DNA from: Candidatus Hodarchaeota archaeon
GTDB lineage: Archaea > Asgardarchaeota > Heimdallarchaeia > Hodarchaeales > Hodarchaeaceae
Length of the DNA stretch: 8,003 bases
Direction of reading: 5' to 3'
NCBI GenBank assembly: GCA_016839785.1
Contig: JAEOTQ010000090.1
Coordinates: forward strand, 1 to 8,003
This document shows positions 1-8,003 of this stretch, in pieces (position 1 is the first letter of the stretch; each line of letters starts with the position of its first letter). Under the pieces are notes generated by a model. That model did not search any database. It had not been told where the DNA came from and saw only the letters and a list, made by a program, of their open reading frames with translations. A program made the translations under genes and the position numbers.

Positions 1-1271
1 GCATAGATTTTCTGTGGCGCGGAATATTGAACCATTTCCACGAGGCCTTCTAATGAAGAATGACCAGAAAATTGAAATTGTTTAATTTCAAGATTTAAAA
101 CGACATCGAATACTTGGCCAAATCCATTATCTAGTGAAACTTCTTTTCGTCCAGCTGCGATCTCTGATCCCATTGTTCCTTCCACTTGATAACCTACAAT
201 ATACAGGCCATTTTGGATATTATTTCCACCCATTCGTAAATAATCATAAACTGGCCCTCCTTCCATCATACCAGATGTCGTTAAAATTATACTCTGCTGT
301 TCACGATTAATTAAAAGCTCCCGTTTCTTAGATCGTTTCATTTTCATGGCTACATCATCTAAAACACGAATTCCTTCATGATCAAATGGAGTTCTATACC
401 CTCTCTCTTTGAGTTCAATTAAAACACGGGGAGAAACCCATTTATCATTCATGTATCGTTCATAAATGGCATTCATATCAAGAATCATACCATCAATATA
501 AAGAGGGAACTTATGAAGGAAAGAATCAAAATCACTCGCTAGGTAAGCCTGGATTTCTTGTGATCTCCCAAGGGCAAAGGATGGAATAATGGCTTTTCCA
601 CCCCTAGAGTAACAACTGAGTAATGATTTTGTCAATTTTGAAGTAACTGTTTTTCGTCCCTCGATTCGCCTGTTTGCATTTGTTGTTTCAGTTATCAATA
701 TATCAATCGGATCATCTGGATCTGGAAATTGGATGGGATCATGATAGGGAGTTTTTGCATTGTTAAAATCACCAGTATATAAAATTCGGGTCCCTTCCCA
801 GTCTAGAAGGATGAGCGCACTACCTAATATATGGCTAGCATCCAAAAATTCTGCAGTTATTCCATTAGCAATTTTGAATTTTCTCCGATAATTATGAGTT
901 TCTATTTTCATTAATGAAGTTTGAAGATGGGAAACACCATAATGGTGGGGACCTTCAATTTTTAAATGATCTTTCCAAAGAATATGAACAATATCCTTTG
1001 TTGGCGTCGTCATATGGATTGGTCCATGATATCCAGCACGATAGAGAGCTGGTGTATATCCAGAATGATCAATGTGAGCATGGGAAATAAGAACTGCGTC
1101 AGTATCCTGTGCAAATCTGTCAACATCGGGAGGAGTAGAAACACGGCCTGTTCGTCGGGGGTGCAATTGAATCCCAGCGTCAAGTATTACTCTTCGATCA
1201 TCGCTATCAGAGATCATTACACAAGATTTTCCCACAGAGTCATAAGCACCGAGTACACTAATTTCTAACAT
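1..1271 (-). CDS. beta-CASP metallo-beta-lactamase-fold ribonuclease (aCPSF2 / RNase J-like, no N-terminal KH domains); C-terminus runs off the left edge
   Basis: ATG at 1271-1269 is preceded by an in-frame TGA (1277-1275). The frame stays open to position 3 (423 codons). It is absent from the ORF track because the window holds no stop codon. My own translation begins MLEISVLGAYDSVGKSCVMISDSDDRRVILDAG. MBL motifs: HAHIDH (1065-1082), DASHILGS, LYTGDF. beta-CASP motif A is ILITETT and motif B is FSGHSS, near the left edge. Motif C would lie outside the window. Confidence 0.85.
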   Translation of the reverse strand, partial: MLEISVLGAYDSVGKSCVMISDSDDRRVILDAGIQLHPRRTGRVSTPPDVDRFAQDTDAVLISHAHIDHSGYTPALYRAGYHGPIHMTTPTKDIVHILWKDHLKIEGPHHYGVSHLQTSLMKIETHNYRRKFKIANGITAEFLDASHILGSALILLDWEGTRILYTGDFNNAKTPYHDPIQFPDPDDPIDILITETTNANRRIEGRKTVTSKLTKSLLSCYSRGGKAIIPSFALGRSQEIQAYLASDFDSFLHKFPLYIDGMILDMNAIYERYMNDKWVSPRVLIELKERGYRTPFDHEGIRVLDDVAMKMKRSKKRELLINREQQSIILTTSGMMEGGPVYDYLRMGGNNIQNGLYIVGYQVEGTMGSEIAAGRKEVSLDNGFGQVFDVVLNLEIKQFQFSGHSSLEGLVEMVQYSAPQKIY

Positions 1272-1452
1272 TTTTCATCAATTATTTCAAAATTTGTAAC
1301 ATGAGAGTTTCTTAATTTTGGTTTTCCAATTAGTTAAGGTCATCACATCAAGCGATCTACTCAATATAGCAATGGTTGCCCAATACTAAAAGGACTCTTC
1401 CGTGAGGTAAAACACTTTAAGATGGAGTTAGTCTTCTATCATTCGATTAATA

Positions 1453-2166
1453 ATGATATCTGATCTTCAGGAGATTTCAATTTCCGCAATTTTACTGGGT
1501 GTAATTCTACTCTTTTCTGGGTCTTTCCTTGATATTCCAGATTTGTATAATATAGGATTTATTATTCTGGCATTGGGATTCTTCTTGATAGTCATCCAAT
1601 GGATCGCAAGCGGTGGCGCCATTGAAATATTAAATTGGCTTCCTATCATTCTCATATTCACTATCATTACTTCCTTAAGTAGTGATTTTGTCTCTCAATC
1701 AAGTACAACCCAAATTCTAACTTGGCCATCCGTTGCAATTATTTTGATTGTCATAGTCTTTTTCGTTCTCTTCCAAGGTGGAGATTTAACTTTTTTAATG
1801 CAGTTCTTACCCGTTATTCTCGGTCTAAGCCTACTTGGATTAGTATTTGGCCAATTAATTTGGGCGGACGCATTTAGAGGATTGGCATATAGTATTGGAT
1901 TTCTAGGAATAGTAATTTTACTTCTATGGATAAATGTCCGAAAATCTCAACAAAAACCCCCTGCAACGGGTGAATTATCAACAATTTTAGGAGAAGATGG
2001 TATTGCGACAACTGATATTTCTAGTGTCTATGGAGGAAAAGTTAAAATAGGAACAACTATTTGGAGGGCAACTAGTGAGTTTAATATTCAAGAAGGAGAA
2101 ATGGTTCGAGTAGTTGGAACTGGAGAGAAAAATTTAGTTTTAGAGGTTCAAAGAATTGAGTCCTAA
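1453..2166 (+). CDS. polytopic membrane protein with C-terminal NfeD-like (OB-fold) domain
   Basis: 237-aa ORF starting at ATG 1453. About 170 N-terminal residues form several hydrophobic helices (LLGVILLFSG, IGFIILALGFFLIV, ILIFTIITSL, VAIILIVIVFFVLF, VILGLSLLGLVFG, IGFLGIVILLLWI). The soluble tail GKVKIGTTIWRATSEFNIQEGEMVRVVGTGEKNLVLEVQRI matches the pattern of the NfeD C-terminal domain. Confidence 0.7.
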   Translation: MISDLQEISISAILLGVILLFSGSFLDIPDLYNIGFIILALGFFLIVIQWIASGGAIEILNWLPIILIFTIITSLSSDFVSQSSTTQILTWPSVAIILIVIVFFVLFQGGDLTFLMQFLPVILGLSLLGLVFGQLIWADAFRGLAYSIGFLGIVILLLWINVRKSQQKPPATGELSTILGEDGIATTDISSVYGGKVKIGTTIWRATSEFNIQEGEMVRVVGTGEKNLVLEVQRIES

Positions 2167-2195
2167 GCAGTGTAGTTCTTTATAGTCAGAGACAA

Positions 2196-2202
2196 TTTTT
2201 TT
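2196..2202 (+). terminator. oligo-T tract (T7), candidate archaeal terminator for the NfeD-like gene
   Basis: A run of seven T lies 30 nt downstream of the stop at 2164-2166. Archaeal RNA polymerase terminates at oligo-T stretches. Confidence 0.35.
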
Positions 2203-2302
2203 GAAATGTTGGTAGCGACATTACTCTGGTAAGTAAATACCTATCTAGTACTAAAAAAGGCATATAATTTTCCTTAAAATGCCGCTATATAACAAAAAAA
2301 TT

Positions 2303-2379
2303 GGGCCGGTGGTCTAGCTCGGTATGACGCTAGTCTCACACACTAGAAGTCGGTAGTTCAAATCTGCCTCGGCCCACCA
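2303..2379 (+). tRNA. tRNA-Val, anticodon CAC, genomically encoded CCA
   Basis: Hand-folded cloverleaf. Acceptor stem GGGCCGG (2303-2309) pairs with TCGGCCC (2369-2375). D arm is GTCT/TGAC. Anticodon stem CTAGT (2330-2334) pairs with ACTAG (2342-2346), with loop CTCACAC (anticodon CAC at 2337-2339). Variable loop is AAGTC. T arm GGTAG (2352-2356) pairs with CTGCC (2364-2368), with loop TTCAAAT. Discriminator is A2376 and CCA is 2377-2379. The gene is a GC-rich island in AT-rich surroundings. Confidence 0.93.
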
Positions 2380-2391
2380 CCCTTATCATCA

Positions 2392-2399
2392 TTTTCTTT
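2392..2399 (+). terminator. T-rich tract (TTTTCTTT) downstream of the tRNA
   Basis: It lies 13 nt past the tRNA 3' end. This is an oligo-T type archaeal termination signal and is weak on its own. Confidence 0.3.
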
Positions 2400-2515
2400 A
2401 TCAGAAACACAAAGATTTTAACGTAAGTATGTAAAAATTACTAGGTGAGTTAGATCCCAATAATTTTTCGTAATAAGAAACTAAATTCTTTTTACCTATA
2501 TCACTAACTTTACTC

Positions 2516-3601
2516 ATGATGGAGAGAAACTACAAACGAAGATTTCCTATATCAGATTGGGTTCTTATTACTCTATACGTTCTTATATACCCACTAGCTG
2601 TAAGTTTGACCTTAATTTTCTTTTTCTACAATTTTAGTAACAAAATTAGTCAATTAATATTTTTAAACCTTATAATATTCATATTCCTCCTTATTTCTCT
2701 GTATTTTTATCAATCTGTCTTCCGTAAACTTGATTTATACGCTAAAAAAGTAGATTTCTATCATTTTACTCCCTCTCTAGTCGATTTAGTTATTCATTTG
2801 ATAAAACAGGTATATTACGTGCTTTTTCTTGGTTTGTTACTCACTTTTTTCTTGGAATTCTTAATTTCTGTTTCCAAGAACGATTTAACTGTTTATCTGG
2901 GATTTTCTATCAGCATCTCCCTCCTTTTAGAAGGAATATTAATTGTTATTCGCATGCGAAGCAAAATTGCTTTAATAAATACAGCACAAGAACCTGTAAA
3001 AGAGAATATTATTGCAAATTTGAATCTTGACTATCCAGAAAGTATGAAAATCAGTGAATATCGATTTGCTGATATTCAAGTTCCATCGTTATTTCTCTCA
3101 GCTGGAGTAACAACATTTGGTCTAAATAATTATATTTGCTTAGTTTCTAGGTATTTTAATTGGAAATTAAATGATGAGGAATTAATTGCTGTCTTACTAC
3201 ATGAAGTAGGTCATGTTAAAAACAATCACATAAGGAAAACATATATGATCATTGGAACAGAGGTAATTTTAAGGTCGATAAGGATCTTTAGCGTATTACT
3301 ACTGCTCTTAAGCATTTCAGGCAATCTTGAACTTTTCAAGATTGACCCATTCTCGTTCCTCTATTTAGTTTTGATTCTTAGTGTATTCCTTGCTTCCGCG
3401 TTTCTAACGTTTTTTCTGAGATATCGAACCTATTTAGCAGAAATTTCGGCTGATGAATATTCTGCAAACGAGATAGGTGCATTAGAACTGGCAAAAGTCT
3501 TACGAAAATTACCAAAACTAATTCCTTCCCCTTTGGTATATGATCAATCTTCGTTTTTAGGTTTCAGAGTAAATCTCCTTCGAGATTCGGCAAAAAAATA
3601 A
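2516..3601 (+). CDS. integral-membrane zinc metalloprotease, M48 (HtpX/Ste24)-like
   Basis: 361-aa ORF with tandem ATGs at 2516 and 2519. HEVGH sits at 3200-3214 (LLHEVGHVKNNH). A downstream AEISADEYSA (3437-3466) fits the M48 third-ligand E-x3-AD motif. Hydrophobic segments lie both before the HEXXH (residues about 15-150) and between HEXXH and the Glu motif. Confidence 0.72.
   Translation: MMERNYKRRFPISDWVLITLYVLIYPLAVSLTLIFFFYNFSNKISQLIFLNLIIFIFLLISLYFYQSVFRKLDLYAKKVDFYHFTPSLVDLVIHLIKQVYYVLFLGLLLTFFLEFLISVSKNDLTVYLGFSISISLLLEGILIVIRMRSKIALINTAQEPVKENIIANLNLDYPESMKISEYRFADIQVPSLFLSAGVTTFGLNNYICLVSRYFNWKLNDEELIAVLLHEVGHVKNNHIRKTYMIIGTEVILRSIRIFSVLLLLLSISGNLELFKIDPFSFLYLVLILSVFLASAFLTFFLRYRTYLAEISADEYSANEIGALELAKVLRKLPKLIPSPLVYDQSSFLGFRVNLLRDSAKK
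3592..3598 (-). terminator. oligo-T (T7 on the - strand), candidate terminator of the SNM1-like/MutS-like/longin-like gene cluster
   Basis: The + strand A7 run at 3592-3598 reads TTTTTTT on the - strand. It lies 27-33 nt downstream of the stop of the 3625-4374 gene and overlaps the last codons of the convergent M48-like gene. No T run of 5 or more occurs on the - strand in the two intergenic gaps inside the cluster. Confidence 0.35.
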
Positions 3602-3624
3602 AGTAAATATAAGTAGTCAAGAAA

Positions 3625-4374
3625 TCATTCAATAAGTGCAAGTTCTACGTCTTCAATTCCTAAGGATGATAGAAGAGATGATAAGAACTCTTCAAAAAAA
3701 CATCCGCTTTTTTCAATTTGACAAAAAAAGCAGCCGTCACAATGAAGAAAATACCTAAGATCTTCTCGCTTAACATGCTCGCCATCTAACTGCATAACTA
3801 GCTTATCAATTCGTGCTAAAACAAAATTTTGACCTTTTGATAATGCCTGTTTAAAGGAATCATGATGTTTCTCTAGTAGCCGATTTCCTATTTTGCGTCC
3901 TAAGGTATCCAAACCTTCTTGCAAGTATTCTTCCTCTGTAAGTAATCCATCTTCAATTAGAAATAATAAAAGTGCTATTTTCTTTCCTAGGGGAATGAGG
4001 ATTTCATCGGCGTCCTTCGAAAAACTCTCAAAAATTGAAATGTCTACTACTTCACGTTGCCACATTACTTCAGGAAATCTAATAAAAAATCGTTCTAGGA
4101 GAAAATCTATTTCCTTTTCACACCATTGGGGATTAATTGTCGATTCGATGAAAATGACAAATAATAGGGGTTGTTCACGCTTTTTAAAGAATAATGATAC
4201 TTTAGACATCTGTAATATATCTATCGCGTCATTTTCTACCGCGGTGGCATAATTATAGAGGGCACTGATAAGCCCTGAGCGAAGGATTATATCCGTGGAA
4301 TTTCCTGTCTGATATTTTCTATGGAATAAAACCGTACCTGATTCGTGAATACAGAGAAATTCCCTGATTATCAT
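3625..4374 (-). CDS. hypothetical protein: longin/roadblock-like N-terminal domain plus Cys-rich V4R-like C-terminal region
   Basis: 249-aa ORF with ATG at 4374-4372 and a GAGG Shine-Dalgarno-like element 8 nt upstream. The N-terminus MIIREFLCIHESGTVLFHRKYQ...DIILRSGLISALYNYA...LLFVIFIES...IDFLLERFF has the hydrophobic periodicity of longin/AP-sigma/roadblock folds. The C-terminus contains LGRKIGNRLL and the cluster HCDGCFFCQIEKSGC (3700-3744) followed by FFEEFLSSLLSSLG, which resembles the Cys-containing end of V4R domains. That it is coding is confident. The domain calls are pattern-based only. Confidence 0.6.
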   Translation of the reverse strand: MIIREFLCIHESGTVLFHRKYQTGNSTDIILRSGLISALYNYATAVENDAIDILQMSKVSLFFKKREQPLLFVIFIESTINPQWCEKEIDFLLERFFIRFPEVMWQREVVDISIFESFSKDADEILIPLGKKIALLLFLIEDGLLTEEEYLQEGLDTLGRKIGNRLLEKHHDSFKQALSKGQNFVLARIDKLVMQLDGEHVKREDLRYFLHCDGCFFCQIEKSGCFFEEFLSSLLSSLGIEDVELALIE

Positions 4375-4382
4375 TTTTCATT

Positions 4383-4386
4383 CCTC
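4383..4386 (-). promoter_or_regulatory. Shine-Dalgarno-like GAGG upstream of the 3625-4374 gene
   Basis: The - strand reads AAAUGAGGAAUGAAAA-AUG. GAGG sits 8 nt before the ATG and is complementary to the conserved CCUC at the 16S rRNA 3' end. This is typical of internal genes in archaeal operons. Confidence 0.45.
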
Positions 4387-4423
4387 ATTTTGCAGAGAAT
4401 TACTCTAATGTCGAAGGTGCTTG

Positions 4424-6619
4424 TTAAGAATCGAAAGTTTCTAGAATATATGTATAGATTTCCTTTTCAGCACCTTTCGAGATATGTTGTAATCGTTGAA
4501 CGATTAATTCGGGGGTAGATTTTGCGTATTTGTAATATTTTGGTGTTCTATCGACAATGAGATCCAAGTTCTCCGAAAGACCTTTTGCCTCAATTCCATC
4601 AATACGTAATCCTTCCTTGGTATATTTACTAATCTCTTGTGCTAAGTGAGTTACAAAAATACCCACTGAATCTGGAGATCGCCCTAATAAATCCAAAAAT
4701 GCTGCAATTACTCGAGCAGATGCTCCAGGCTCAGAAATACTCTCCATTTCGTCGGCTAGGACTAACCTTGAGTTGGGGCTCATAATCATTTGTGAAAGAG
4801 TTCTCAAGGTCGATTCAAAAGCTCCAGCGTTCATATGATCCGTAGATTTTCTATAATAATGTAATTCTTTGAATCCTCCAATTTTTGCTTCGTAACATGG
4901 GACAGGTAATCCCATTTGGCTAAGTATGACAATTACTGCGATGGCAACAAGTAAAGTTGTTTTTCCACCACTATTTGCTCCTGATAATAGTACGATGCGC
5001 TCTCCATCCACTCCATCGGTTATTTTCCCGATTTCTCCAATAGCGTAAGAGACAGGATCCAATTTTATCTGTCCTCGTAGTTCTTGATGCGCTAAAAATA
5101 AATTTTTCCCTTCTTTAAAGAATAATCCTGTTCCCCTACCTTCAAGAAAAGATGGTAAAGATAATTTATATGTCCCAGCAAATTTACCAATCATCAATAG
5201 ATAATCTAATTCCAACATACAATTTAATCCTTCTATTGCTACTCTCTCATATCCCTTCAATTTCTGGGCTAAATCAACTTTAAGTTCAAAAGCTTTACTC
5301 GATCGTTTCTTACGTATAAATTCAATAAATCGATTTTTAATATCATCTTGAGGGTCGATAGGAAATTTCAGCTCGCGGGGAAAGACGCCGTTTAAATAAT
5401 CGGTCTCTTCGTCCGATAAATTCAATTTAGCGGCTAGTTCAATCTCAGCCCTATTGATGATTTCTTCCACAGCCAAGAATAATTCATCATCCAGATATTC
5501 ACGTAAATCCTCACGGCTGGAGCTAGTAGAATAACCTTGACCCTCAGTTGAAAAGCCCTTAAGCAGCGCGAGAATTTTTTCACCTTCTAAATGAATCGTG
5601 GTATCCTGTAGTTTTTTTTCTAATTCATCATTAAGCTTCAATAATACTTCTTCCAAGACCATTTCAAAGGTCGTTTCAACCTTTAAAAGACGTGAAAAAT
5701 CCTTATTGAGTCTAGAACTTGGTTCTCCGGTTTCCTCTAGATTTGTTAACTCTTTACCCATATTAACCAACATATTTAGATCTAAATCTCCAATAAAGTT
5801 TTTCAATTTTTCAGAGGGAATCTCACGAAGAAGCAACGCTAGTTTAGATATTGTGATCAAAGTGTTTTTGTTCTGTGCGAAAAAAATCAATGATTTCTCT
5901 GGAAGAATGCGATTGACCTCATGACGTTGAGATTCAGAAACAGTAATAATATTTGGGAATTCATCATCAAGGATGTAATCACTGCCAATCCAAATTATTT
6001 CATCTAAACCAGCAAGAGTATCATTAATCTTCTCATAGTCTTCTATGAATAGAATTTCACAATACTTTCCTATTATATTAGAAAGAAGTTCATTATAGAT
6101 GCCTTTATCGGTAGTTGCCACAGCTCGAGATGCAGTATCAATGGATTCTGAATGTTCCTTTAAAGGAAGTAATTGGCGTAAATATGAATCATATTCAACA
6201 AGGGCATTTTTAGATCCTTGGACTATTGTGAATAATTCTTGTCCGAGTCGAGTTATTTCCTGACGATTTTTTATCTTATTTAATGCAGTAATGGGTAAGG
6301 GGAAGTACAAGTAAAGTTTTGAACGAGAGTAGAAAGTATTTCCAAATTTTGAAACCAGATCAATAATACGATTGTAAATTAGAATTGTATCTTCGGTTTT
6401 TAGAAAATCCTGTATTTGTTCACCAGTCTCTTGATAATGCAAATTTCGACACAAGCTAAGGGCAAATCGTTCCCCAATTCCATCAATAGAGGAGATTTCA
6501 GCAATTCGTGACCCTCGTAGGGCATTTAGAACTAGATTTTCGCTTCCAAAATATGAAACGAGTTTCTTTTCAATGGAAGGGCCAACTCCCCTTATATCAC
6601 GAAGTTTTATCACATTCAA
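4424..6619 (-). CDS. MutS-family (MutS2-like domain V) ABC ATPase with N-terminal (HhH)2 domain; no mismatch-recognition domain and no Smr domain
   Basis: 731-aa ORF. Walker A is GANSGGKTT (4955-4981), followed by MGLPVPCYEAKIG, GAFESTL, Walker B LVLADE and FVTHL. ISEPGASARVIAAFLDLL resembles the MutS2 DP-EGAALA-AILE segment. The N-terminal LRDIRGVGPSIEKKLVSYFGS...EISSIDGIGERFALSL gives two helix-hairpin-helix motifs (about 6440-6607). The start codon is TTG (6619-6617). The only in-frame ATG lies about 280 codons downstream and would delete the HhH region. Confidence 0.88.
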   Translation of the reverse strand: MNVIKLRDIRGVGPSIEKKLVSYFGSENLVLNALRGSRIAEISSIDGIGERFALSLCRNLHYQETGEQIQDFLKTEDTILIYNRIIDLVSKFGNTFYSRSKLYLYFPLPITALNKIKNRQEITRLGQELFTIVQGSKNALVEYDSYLRQLLPLKEHSESIDTASRAVATTDKGIYNELLSNIIGKYCEILFIEDYEKINDTLAGLDEIIWIGSDYILDDEFPNIITVSESQRHEVNRILPEKSLIFFAQNKNTLITISKLALLLREIPSEKLKNFIGDLDLNMLVNMGKELTNLEETGEPSSRLNKDFSRLLKVETTFEMVLEEVLLKLNDELEKKLQDTTIHLEGEKILALLKGFSTEGQGYSTSSSREDLREYLDDELFLAVEEIINRAEIELAAKLNLSDEETDYLNGVFPRELKFPIDPQDDIKNRFIEFIRKKRSSKAFELKVDLAQKLKGYERVAIEGLNCMLELDYLLMIGKFAGTYKLSLPSFLEGRGTGLFFKEGKNLFLAHQELRGQIKLDPVSYAIGEIGKITDGVDGERIVLLSGANSGGKTTLLVAIAVIVILSQMGLPVPCYEAKIGGFKELHYYRKSTDHMNAGAFESTLRTLSQMIMSPNSRLVLADEMESISEPGASARVIAAFLDLLGRSPDSVGIFVTHLAQEISKYTKEGLRIDGIEAKGLSENLDLIVDRTPKYYKYAKSTPELIVQRLQHISKGAEKEIYTYILETFDS

Positions 6620-6691
6620 TTCTATTACCGCTCTTTTTACATACTACAGGATATTCTAATATTAAGTCATTATTATCAGTTCGGTTTTTTC

Positions 6692-7603
6692 TTAAATTTT
6701 TGTGATTTCCTGCGCATTTACGAGTCCAATAAACTCATGTACCTCATCGTAAGAACAATGATCGGAATATGGGAAATAATGGACATCTAATCGTTTGGAA
6801 ATTAATTCAATTGCCCAACCTGTAGGGGAGATCCGTAAGGAATTTATTAAACGTGCTTCCGTTTGTTGGTCCAATCCAGAAAGATTTTCAACTCTCCTTC
6901 TACTCTCAACACAGATTCCTGACTCTGGATCATCGGTAAAAATATCCCAATCTCCACCAATCTCTTTATAGATTTTAACTTTTTTATCTGGAGCGAATAT
7001 TTTCACTTTCAGCGCATCACTAATTGTTTTCAATAGTTTTTCCTTCCCTATTTGATAGGCAGCAATCCAGATCTCTTTCTGTGGATAATTTCCATCAGCT
7101 AACATAAGAGAAAGGATTTCTGAGATTAAATCCTTTCGTGAAGGAAAAGTGTATTTAGGATTTTTTCCATAGGTATAATCTAACCATAAATGATCTGCAT
7201 CACGAATGAGTTCTATTTCATCCAGAATTGGCTGACCCAGACGGAAATCGCCTGTGTAAACTTCTTTTCTATTTTCTGGTGTCTCAGTTACAAACATTAA
7301 ACTTCCTAAACAATGATTTGCATCAATAGCATGAATTACAAAGTCATCGAAATCTAAAGATTGATTCTTATTAATTACTAAACATTTCTCTTTAGGAATT
7401 CGATGAAGCACTTTTATAGCTGCGGCTGTCTCTTTTGAGCAAACTATTGTTGAATCTGGTGAAGAGAGAATAGATTTTATTCCAGTAGTGTGATCACTGT
7501 GAGCGTGAGATAGAAAATAGTAATCTGATGATGTGGAGTGTTTTTTTCTTTTCCGAAGTGGAAATTCATCAAAATAACTATTGGATAACTTTGAAAAAAC
7601 CAT
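6692..7603 (-). CDS. SNM1/PSO2/Artemis-type (DRMBL) beta-CASP DNA nuclease
   Basis: 303-aa ORF with ATG at 7603-7601. Motifs: FLSHAHSDH (HAHSDH = 7490-7507), DANHC(LGS) (7310-7324), YTGDFR, WLDYTY (beta-CASP motif A), AAYQIGKEK, SPTGW (motif B) and YSDHCSYDE (about 6752-6766, motif C). All of these mirror the signature strings of eukaryotic SNM1A/Apollo/Artemis: HFHSDH, ANHCPG, TGDFR, LDTTY, YSIGKEK, PTGW, YSEHSS. Confidence 0.88.
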   Translation of the reverse strand: MVFSKLSNSYFDEFPLRKRKKHSTSSDYYFLSHAHSDHTTGIKSILSSPDSTIVCSKETAAAIKVLHRIPKEKCLVINKNQSLDFDDFVIHAIDANHCLGSLMFVTETPENRKEVYTGDFRLGQPILDEIELIRDADHLWLDYTYGKNPKYTFPSRKDLISEILSLMLADGNYPQKEIWIAAYQIGKEKLLKTISDALKVKIFAPDKKVKIYKEIGGDWDIFTDDPESGICVESRRRVENLSGLDQQTEARLINSLRISPTGWAIELISKRLDVHYFPYSDHCSYDEVHEFIGLVNAQEITKI

Positions 7604-7627
7604 TTATCTGCCCCAAGAGTAACTTAA

Positions 7628-7635
7628 TCTATAAT
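7628..7635 (-). promoter_or_regulatory. TATA-box-like element (ATTATAGA on the - strand) upstream of the SNM1-like gene
   Basis: It is centred about 28 nt upstream of ATG 7603. That spacing suits an archaeal TATA box driving a leaderless or very short-leader transcript, which is common for the first gene of an archaeal operon. Confidence 0.35.
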
Positions 7636-7796
7636 CCATCTTTTCTCAATTGACAAATTACGATAAATTGCTAAATTAATTAATTTTAGGATTATTGGTT
7701 GGTATTTTATGTTAATAATCTAAAGGAAAATTGTTGTCTAATCTACTGGATTAGTATGTGAACAATTTGTTTGTATTGAAATCCCTTAAAATTATT

Positions 7797-7814
7797 GAGA
7801 AAGAAAGAAAAAAG
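7797..7814 (-). terminator. pyrimidine/oligo-T tract (CUUUUUUCUUUCUUUCUC on the - strand) downstream of the 5S locus
   Basis: The + strand purine tract gagaaagaaagaaaaaag reads as a T-rich run, including T6 at 7808-7813, on the - strand. It lies about 50 nt past the end of the 5S-derived sequence. Confidence 0.45.
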
Positions 7815-7857
7815 TAATAGAAAGGAGTTTGTATCTCATGGCGCATTTTCACCAGGG

Positions 7858-7867
7858 GATATTGTTT
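7858..7867 (-). other. trailer arm of a putative BHB-like processing motif (AAA bulge plus CAAUAUC)
   Basis: It lies immediately 3' of the 5S 5'-part. A7867-A7865 are unpaired. CAAUAUC (7864-7858) is perfectly complementary to GAUAUUG (7998-7992) in the leader. Confidence 0.55.
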
Positions 7868-7985
7868 CCGGGTTCGGAATGAGACCGGGTGTGACTCAGG
7901 CCCTTTGGCCGAAGAACCTTCAGCTTTCCGATTTTCCCGTAGGCGCGAGCACAACAGTACAGATCAGAACGGAGCCTGACTTAAC
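7866..7985 (-). rRNA. 5S rRNA, circularly permuted gene order (3' two-thirds first, then a capped helix I, then the 5' third)
   Basis: The - strand contains every 5S element, but in rotated order.
- GUUAAG plus the helix II 3' strand: 7985-7972.
- Helix V: UUCUGAU (7969-7963) pairs with AUCGGAA (7932-7926).
- Loop E and helix IV, with a CUCG loop at 7949-7946.
- Helix I as a closed hairpin: GCUGAAG-GUU-CUUCGGC (7924-7908).
- Helix II 5' strand GGGCCUGA (7903-7896) pairs with 7979-7972.
- Helix III and loop C: CACACCCGGUCUCAUUCCGAACCCGGAA (7893-7866).
The total is 120 nt, forming a GC-rich island. Confidence 0.75.
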
Positions 7986-7998
7986 TTTCGGCAATATC
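7986..7998 (-). other. leader arm of a putative BHB-like processing motif (GAUAUUG plus CCG plus AAA bulge)
   Basis: It lies immediately 5' of the GUUAAG that begins the 5S 3'-part. GAUAUUG (7998-7992) pairs with the trailer. CCG (7991-7989) can pair with CGG (7870-7868). AAA (7988-7986) is unpaired. Confidence 0.55.
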
Positions 7999-8003
7999 TC
8001 ACA

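Follow-up and report, generated by a model that had tools for sequence, protein, structure and literature searches.

Archaeal MutS5 proteins are reported to display ATPase and DNA-binding activity in vitro, and to our knowledge their cellular function has never been established. They form an archaea-specific subfamily that was described in Pyrococcus furiosus and P. horikoshii (Lin et al. 2007, PMC2190696), and Holliday-junction binding has been described for the P. horikoshii protein (Ohshita 2017, as cited in PMC11276520). Bacterial MutS2 carries its own nuclease in the form of a C-terminal Smr endonuclease domain. On the eukaryotic side, the closest described enzymes are the human nucleases SNM1B/Apollo and SNM1A (DCLRE1B, DCLRE1A) and yeast Pso2. 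The present analysis concerns a stretch of 8,003 nucleotides (nt) from Candidatus Hodarchaeota archaeon (assembly GCA_016839785.1, contig JAEOTQ010000090.1, positions 1 to 8,003), referred to as the window, in which a gene for an SNM1/Apollo-type nuclease (gene A) lies directly upstream of a gene for a MutS-family ATPase, probably a MutS5 (gene B), itself followed by a gene for a longin protein (gene C). Adjacency of A and B in nearly all relatives examined suggests that their products work together. The reading favored here, with a probability of roughly 0.55, is a pairing, specific to Heimdallarchaeia, in which a sensor or clamp of the MutS5 type and an Apollo-type exonuclease would act together on DNA that is branched or damaged. 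A search of the available literature returned no description of an SNM1-type nuclease in Asgard archaea or of a MutS5-nuclease gene pair.

Translation of the open reading frames (ORFs) of the window, whose G+C content is about 35%, places the three genes on the minus strand in the co-directional order A, B, C. Their close homologues all originate from metagenome-assembled genomes (MAGs) of Hodarchaeales or Heimdallarchaeia (Asgard archaea), and a 'MutS-related protein' of Hodarchaeales shares 99% identity with gene B. Gene neighborhoods were scanned with one genome per species, giving 38 loci with gene B homologues (designated below by L numbers) that were checked by tblastn and hidden Markov model (HMM) searches; the 22 Heimdall-type loci counted are those including upstream DNA. 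In 20 of these 22 Heimdall/Hodarchaeales genome loci, gene A immediately precedes B in the same orientation. The pair is kept at low identity in L018 (B 42%, A 37% identical) and in the metagenomic locus L043 (B 42%), where both flanks are unrelated to those of the window and the genes downstream of B encode methylmalonyl-CoA mutase and MeaB. The independent metagenome contigs L050 and L051 likewise display A, then B.

Gene C behaves differently from A. It follows B only in L001, L002, L003 and L015, where B is at least 80% identical, is missing from 16 loci that keep the A-B pair, and is absent downstream of B wherever B is at most 66% identical. In the group with 60-66% identity, B is usually followed directly by tRNA-Val and then by a convergent NfeD gene, both syntenic with B in the loci checked; a luciferase-like gene is inserted right after B in L009 and a PP2C-like gene in L013. 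The stretch from B to tRNA-Val is a variable slot that holds, by lineage, gene C with a gene for an M48 peptidase, the luciferase-like gene, the PP2C-like gene, or nothing. Homologues of C found elsewhere (L039-L042) stand in unrelated contexts, after a CCG-domain gene or a gene for HMG-CoA reductase. Because A stays with B across loci while C does not, the conserved unit is A plus B, in Hodarchaeales and some other Heimdallarchaeia. Gene C is a recent neighbor that occupies the variable slot together with the M48 gene, and is functionally unrelated to the pair. An initial annotation of the window had proposed a single module of three genes, with conservation of their adjacency across archaeal genomes as the check. 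Its association of a MutS-like ATPase lacking Smr with an SNM1 nuclease is backed by the gene order in the 20 of 22 loci and in L043; the three-gene module itself fails, as C is confined to the four closest genomes and is elsewhere replaced by tRNA-Val and NfeD or by inserted genes. The longin protein is not a DNA-repair component and, because its gene proved a false lead, adjacency in a single genome is not readable as an operon.

Against Pfam, the product of gene A matches Lactamase_B_2 (8e-9) and DRMBL (5e-5), both beyond the cut-offs. The DRMBL score is 23.8 bits for a cut-off of 22 and the domain is matched by 18 of 20 homologues; no match to RMMBL, the C-terminal region of RNA-type enzymes, was obtained in gene A. 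The HxHxDH motif lies at residues 33-38 (nt 7507-7490) and the DRMBL region at residues 240-300 (nt 6886-6704). A phmmer comparison with PDB chains returned only SNM1 proteins as top matches (Apollo 3.7e-26, SNM1A 1.8e-20, Artemis 4e-12). With a profile of the gene A family, the scores are 147 bits for Apollo (6e-42, along residues 22-300 of 303), 130 bits for SNM1A (9e-37) and 85 bits for Artemis (7e-23); the next-best match after the SNM1 members is CPSF73, with 36 bits (4e-8) over about 70-110 residues only. The metal-binding motifs (H33-A-H35-S-D37-H38, H97 and D119) and the beta-CASP motifs A (D142) and B (H282, within PYSDH) are invariant in the 18 full-length homologues. The product of gene A is a full-length, bona fide member of the SNM1 nuclease family.

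The 5'-phosphate pocket of Apollo is formed by Y182, K186, T257, S258, S274 and D275, plus R158 (Baddock et al., PMC8450094). When these residues are placed on the phmmer alignment of Apollo with gene A, six of the seven aligned positions agree (Y183, K187, T261, S280, D281 and R156 in gene A, all invariant in the 18 homologues), the exception being Apollo S258, which becomes G262. Because the pocket residues are conserved, we infer that gene A encodes a 5'-phosphate-dependent 5'->3' exonuclease of the Apollo/SNM1A kind rather than an Artemis-like endonuclease. The likeness to Apollo, SNM1A and Pso2 extends along the metallo-beta-lactamase (MBL) and beta-CASP core and includes all metal-binding motifs and the PYSDH signature. 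Differences are seen as well: gene A encodes only the 303-residue core, without any TRF2-, PCNA- or ubiquitin-binding extension, and, beside the change of S258 to Gly, R259 of Apollo is replaced by Trp. Gene A also differs from the genes of eukaryotic SNM1 nucleases in adjoining a MutS-type ATPase gene, an arrangement of which we know no instance in eukaryotes. The best non-Heimdall prokaryotic relatives reach at most 100 bits with the gene A family profile, in a retrieval pre-filtered by shared words from which closer prokaryotic relatives may have escaped. In one of the related loci (L003:456-1367), gene A is broken into two ORFs (456-986 and 1023-1367), as a result of a frameshift or pseudogene formation, or of an assembly error.

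The product of gene B matches Pfam MutS_V (3.7e-10, 40.5 bits for a cut-off of 30.2), and helix-hairpin-helix (HhH) families are matched below their cut-offs at residues 4-58. The Pfam and NCBIfam searches returned no sequence match to Smr, to the mismatch-binding domain I or to the connector domain II, in agreement with the Smr-less MutS2-like ATPase described initially. An N-terminal (HhH)2 module is placed at residues 3-58 (nt 6613-6446) and MutS domain V at residues 544-677 (nt 4990-4589). Walker A (GANSGGKT, 547-554), Walker B (D623-E624) and H658 are invariant in 42 homologues. A profile search of the PDB aligned MutS2 and MSH3 only across residues 536-660 and the HhH region of topoisomerase V (Topo V) across residues 3-56; the best PDB sequence match of the ATPase domain is MutS2 (7vuf, 1.4e-10). 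In NCBIfam, TIGR01069 (mutS2) is matched far below threshold, at 39 bits for a cut-off of 400. The AlphaFold model of the protein has a predicted local distance difference test (pLDDT) value of 81 and a predicted template modeling score (pTM) of 0.77. Foldseek alignments of this model to E. coli MutS, to MSH3 and to MutS2 span 700-800 columns (E about 1e-13), so that the fold agrees with MutS/MSH along the whole protein. Since the model aligns with MutS and MSH3, where sequence searches detect domain V alone, the central region (residues 60-500) is predicted to be a MutS-like connector, lever and clamp.

An exhaustive HMMER search with gene B retrieved 231 cluster representatives at E<=1e-30, the majority of the best ones being full-length. 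Full-length homologues occur in Methanothermobacter, Methanocella, Methanothrix, Thermoplasmatota, Nitrososphaeria and Methanoperedens, and those of Methanothermobacter are named 'endonuclease MutS2' or 'helix-hairpin-helix domain-containing'. Cluster look-ups returned Methanothermobacter, Methanocella and Thermoplasmata names, and no Thermococcales names among them. Gene B is accordingly assigned, from its motifs and homologues, to an archaea-wide HhH-MutS family with an intact ABC ATPase, and is probably MutS5. As in the archaeal subfamily (PMC2190696), only the ATPase domain (MutSac) resembles other MutS proteins in sequence, both the mismatch-binding domain and Smr are lacking, and the homologues include the Methanothermobacter proteins traditionally called 'MutS2'. 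The difference lies in the neighborhood, as the homologues examined outside Heimdallarchaeia have no adjoining nuclease gene: no nuclease was found among their immediate neighbors, in Methanoperedens-type and other loci alike. The genes inspected there as a possible nuclease partner, and rejected, were those for Usp, SOD, GXGXG, PhoU, JAB and RNA polymerase subunits. Bacterial MutS2 shares with gene B a MutS core and ATPase without domain I and, in its logic, the coupling of a branched-DNA sensor to a nuclease. Gene B departs from MutS2 by the lack of both Smr and KOW and by its N-terminal (HhH)2 module, and the nuclease is here a separate SNM1-type protein of an unrelated fold family. A divergent B homologue in L043 (2998-5526, 842 residues) bears an extra C-terminal, winged-helix-like tail of about 110 residues.

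In the mechanism proposed, a dimer of B would bind branched or distorted DNA (a Holliday junction, a stalled fork or a crosslink-associated structure) by means of its HhH modules and clamp, would change state upon ATP binding, and would recruit or license A. Gene A would then resect 5'->3' from a 5'-phosphorylated nick or end, in the manner of SNM1A and Apollo. The division of labor would be that of bacterial MutS2 with its Smr domain, split here between two proteins. Junction binding by B is proposed because binding of Holliday junctions has been reported for P. horikoshii MutS5 (cited in PMC11276520), and the licensing or recruitment step and the substrate are drawn by analogy from that report and from SNM1 enzymology. 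For archaeal MutS5, the conserved nuclease partner provides a testable hypothesis, namely that B stimulates or targets A on branched or crosslinked DNA. With the family profile, human Apollo and SNM1A outscore every non-Heimdall prokaryotic protein retrieved, and the presence of such a nuclease in Hodarchaeales bears on the origin of eukaryotic crosslink-repair nucleases. A bolder extension, which we consider unlikely as it stands, would make gene A an archaeal forerunner of the eukaryotic SNM1/Pso2/Apollo/Artemis family, with A-B preserving an ancestral lesion-sensing clamp that licenses a 5'->3' exonuclease. Were it true, the archaeal order that is placed nearest to eukaryotes would harbor a prokaryotic prototype of the eukaryotic processing of crosslinks and stalled forks, and archaeal MutS5 would gain its first concrete function.

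A number of observations weigh against a functional pairing of A and B. Gene A is not nearby in L012 (B 64% identical), L021 (36%), L044 (41%) and L046 (33%), and it is missing beside B in all 14 Methanoperedens-type loci (Methanoperedens and related MAGs, about 30% identity). In L052, A and B are parted by a 1-kb insert with two small ORFs on the opposite strand, and in L005 and L006 the A-B gap contains T5-T6 runs. Moreover, the whole block PTPS-MptE-5S-A-B-tRNA-Val-NfeD-beta-CASP RNase is syntenic within Hodarchaeales, so that part, or even much, of the adjacency of A and B could reflect gene order that was inherited and not selection for coupling. Taken to its end, this reasoning would make A a stand-alone SNM1-type repair exonuclease and B a solitary MutS5, neighbors through inherited gene order only. 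Such an explanation, which we hold to be possible if somewhat unlikely, accommodates the solitary B of Methanoperedens and other archaea, the broken or interrupted pairs of L012 and L052, flanking genes that are equally syntenic across Hodarchaeales, and a gap with candidate promoter elements and, in some relatives, T-runs. More than inheritance of gene order is nevertheless argued because the pair persists at about 40% identity in L018 and in L043, whose flanks are both different, and because the site downstream of B was repeatedly remodeled, yet 16 of 18 loci keep an A-B gap of 72-84 nt, the remaining two having one of about 190 nt. Proteins of the gene A family were furthermore found, in the searches run, only in the lineage that carries the pair. 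The inclusion of gene C in one operon and one DNA-processing module with A and B could be read from the co-directional genes of the window and its four closest relatives, from a B-C gap of 49 nt without T-run and from the GAGG motif that precedes C. This arrangement was rejected on the neighborhood data described above, in particular the loss of C once B falls to 66% identity or less and the unrelated company that its homologues keep elsewhere; the longin fold, moreover, is of the vesicle-traffic or GTPase-regulator type, and a Heimdall longin-TRAPPC3 fusion is known from a membrane-traffic context (PMC10933270). The three-gene module is therefore very improbable.

The substrate of the pair could also be other than DNA. 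A role in ribosome rescue is now also known for bacterial MutS2, and many beta-CASP enzymes are RNases. By analogy with MutS2/RqcU, which splits collided ribosomes, the pair might act on RNA or on stalled ribosomes with A as an RNase; MutS2 ribosome complexes (PDB 7qv3, 8qpp) are indeed among the PDB relatives of the gene B ATPase domain, and the pair has genes for rRNA, tRNA and a beta-CASP RNase as neighbors. The best NCBIfam match of gene B, although far sub-threshold at 63 bits, is in addition the non-DNA reactivase KamC. The ribosome rescue by MutS2 and the KamC match together mean that MutS-like ATPases need not act on DNA, and both count against the DNA-processing role preferred here. 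An action on RNA or ribosomes is yet rated as improbable, since gene A belongs to the DNA-specific SNM1 branch, with DRMBL instead of RMMBL and 147 bits for Apollo versus 36 for CPSF73, and retains the 5'-phosphate pocket, and since gene B possesses a Topo V-like (HhH)2 DNA-binding module and neither the KOW nor the Smr domain of MutS2. The initial annotation had also kept open an anti-phage defense system, on the ground that an ATPase beside a nuclease is the generic layout of many such systems. This layout is all that speaks for it. With PADLOC, genes A and C had no match at all, and gene B matched nothing but P-loop models below threshold (E 0.02-0.09), which is not meaningful; the genomic position of the pair is fixed within a conserved housekeeping block, the identities of A and B track each other across genomes as vertical descent predicts, and the loci examined display no mobile-element or island features. 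A defense role for the pair is accordingly regarded as extremely improbable. The B homologue of L043, as mentioned, is encoded next to methylmalonyl-CoA mutase and MeaB genes, and KamC is a MutS-like reactivase of a B12-dependent mutase; the two are probably brought together by coincidence.

Signals for transcription and translation were compared among the relatives. A TATA-like sequence, TATAGATTAA, is present at -30 to -21 from the ATG of gene A, as had been noticed initially. The leaderless start deduced from it does not hold: the box at -28 is not conserved even in the closest relatives, and 15 of the 19 upstream regions compared have a GGGG or GGAGG motif at a distance of 6-11 nt before the ATG. 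Because the Shine-Dalgarno-like motif is conserved and the -28 box is not, a leaderless start is disfavored and the mRNA of gene A is probably leadered. An AT-rich block farther upstream is nearly identical in the window, L001, L002, L003 and L015, the sequence nearer the ATG being variable, and is a candidate promoter of gene A. The A-B gap contains the Shine-Dalgarno-like motif GGTAAT (6629-6624), which reads GGTGAT in L003, matching the anti-Shine-Dalgarno core, as well as a TATA-like sequence, TTAATATT, about 40-47 nt upstream of the start codon of gene B; TATA-like stretches are conserved in the gap. Of 18 related loci, 17 use TTG as this start codon (6617-6619 in the window), and a GGT(A/G)AT-like motif stands before it. 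Conservation of a TTG start across Hodarchaeales is unusual enough to suggest a regulated, low-level translation.

On the minus strand, neither of the two gaps in the window has four or more consecutive T, in agreement with the initial annotation; the use of this absence as an operon signal does not extend to relatives, as the runs of L005 and L006 are found in the A-B gap. Genes A and B may be co-transcribed, and gene B probably also has a promoter of its own. The GAGG motif 8-11 nt upstream of the ATG of gene C and the T7 run after this gene (3598-3592), both described initially, are present, the latter within the last codons of the convergent M48 peptidase gene. A scan for bacterial sigma-70 promoters and intrinsic terminators gave no enrichment versus shuffled sequences, the model not being relevant to an archaeon.

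The product of gene C has a weak Pfam match to Fuz_longin_1, a family matched by 25 of 29 gene C homologues (best 1.4e-7). Its AlphaFold model (pLDDT 84) consists of a longin domain (residues 1-100) followed by a C-terminal domain made of helices and then a sheet. Foldseek returned longin and roadblock folds (sigma-adaptins, zeta-COP, MglB, Fuzzy and Mon1) with a probability of 1.0, in a search performed with the whole chain whose result was dominated by the longin domain. The longin assignment made initially for this gene is borne out by both the family matches and the folds. Gene C encodes a longin protein of the membrane-traffic type. A fusion of longin and TRAPPC3 has been described in Heimdall archaea in a membrane-traffic setting (Commun Biol 2024, PMC10933270), and gene C looks like a protein of this kind in the predicted order of a longin N-terminus and a helical/beta domain with conserved cysteines, three of which (C212, C215 and C225) are invariant. 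It differs from the fusion by the lack of any V4R or TRAPP sequence match in the C-terminal domain, and the published protein MBD3190748.1 was not found among the members of the gene C cluster. MntR-like PDB chains were also matched by the C-terminal domain, at E of about 0.006 only, and these matches were judged meaningless. On one Hodarchaeales contig, a weak paralogue of gene C (L042:7017-7616, E 5e-9 with the HMM of the C family) lies just downstream of the C homologue, which suggests a local duplication of the longin gene.

A further element was recognized in the spacer upstream of gene A, which measures 400-600 nt in the loci compared. Within this spacer, a block of some 150 nt hardly varies between loci; AAATATTTAAAG stands ahead of it and oligo-T behind it. 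By its alignments and predicted folding, this block is a circularly permuted 5S rRNA gene, in which the 3' two-thirds of the 5S rRNA are encoded first. The Rfam 5S model scored below threshold at the block; its downstream part nonetheless aligns with positions 1-55 of the model, and its upstream part matches nt 47-109 of the canonical Haladaptatus 5S rRNA, itself recognized by Rfam with 93 bits. The same arrangement is found at L001:8607-8775, at L007:8576-8744 and in ten further loci, plus L049-L053. Because these five independent metagenome contigs share it, the permutation is not an assembly artefact. The core, from GTTAAG to CCCGGAA, measures 120-121 nt in 12 of 12 loci. Once its two parts are put back into canonical order, the predicted folding is the standard three-way junction, nearly identical in its brackets to that of the Haladaptatus 5S rRNA. 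As encoded, a short loop closes helix I and a 9-bp leader-trailer helix clamps the new ends. Pairing is observed in 98% of the cells of the alignment, versus 25-51% with the partners slid, and compensatory changes occur in 10 pairs, of which the leader-trailer helix holds five, the capped helix I three and helix V two.

Beside the leader-trailer helix, CCGG pairs with CCGG and a 3-nt bulge follows each strand (AAG and AAA). In this bulge-helix-bulge-like element, 5 of 12 loci have a canonical central helix of 4 bp and the clade of the window has one of 3 bp; judged from its predicted pairing, the site resembles that of a splicing endonuclease. A cut after the second bulge nucleotide on each strand, followed by ligation, would join ...CCCGGAA to GUUAAG... 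and restore the canonical 5S sequence. The product would be a 5S rRNA in circular form, which a later opening of the cap would make linear. The promoter of the permuted gene lies beyond the end of the window. In closed Heimdallarchaeum genomes, 5S rRNA genes 'could not be predicted' (Wu et al. 2022, PMC8813620), and the permuted arrangement may explain why they escaped prediction.

The features of the window are collected in the table below. The coordinates, common orientation and gaps of 72 and 49 nt given for the three genes in the initial annotation were all reproduced, and the Pfam searches agree with the family assigned to each protein.

Features of the 8,003-nt window (position 1 is its first nucleotide)
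Feature	Position	Strand	Description
Gene A	7603-6692	-	303 aa, ATG start; predicted SNM1/Apollo-type MBL/beta-CASP DNA nuclease
A-B intergenic gap	6620-6691	-	72 nt
Gene B	6619-4424	-	731 aa, TTG start; predicted MutS-family ATPase
Gene C	4374-3625	-	249 aa; predicted longin protein
GGGG Shine-Dalgarno-like motif	7611-7614	-	8-11 nt upstream of the gene A ATG
AT-rich block AATCCTAAAATTAATTAATTT	7673-7693 (-90 to -71)	-	candidate promoter of gene A (B recognition element/TATA)
Permuted 5S region	8003-7797	-	putative; directly upstream of gene A
Permuted 5S core	7985-7866	-	120 nt
Leader helix of permuted 5S	8000-7992	-	
Trailer helix of permuted 5S	7864-7856	-	
T-run after permuted 5S	7813-7808	-	
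M48/HtpX-like membrane peptidase gene	2516-3601	+	convergent with gene C
tRNA-Val(CAC)	2303-2379	+	
NfeD-like membrane protein gene	1453-2166	+	
ORF running off the window start	~1-1270	-	equivalent to L001:15352-16725

In related loci, the NfeD gene is followed by a gene for a 457-residue beta-CASP/RMMBL RNase (aCPSF/RNase J-like). This enzyme is a second MBL nuclease, of the RNA-specific branch, encoded within the same conserved block as the DNA-type SNM1 gene.

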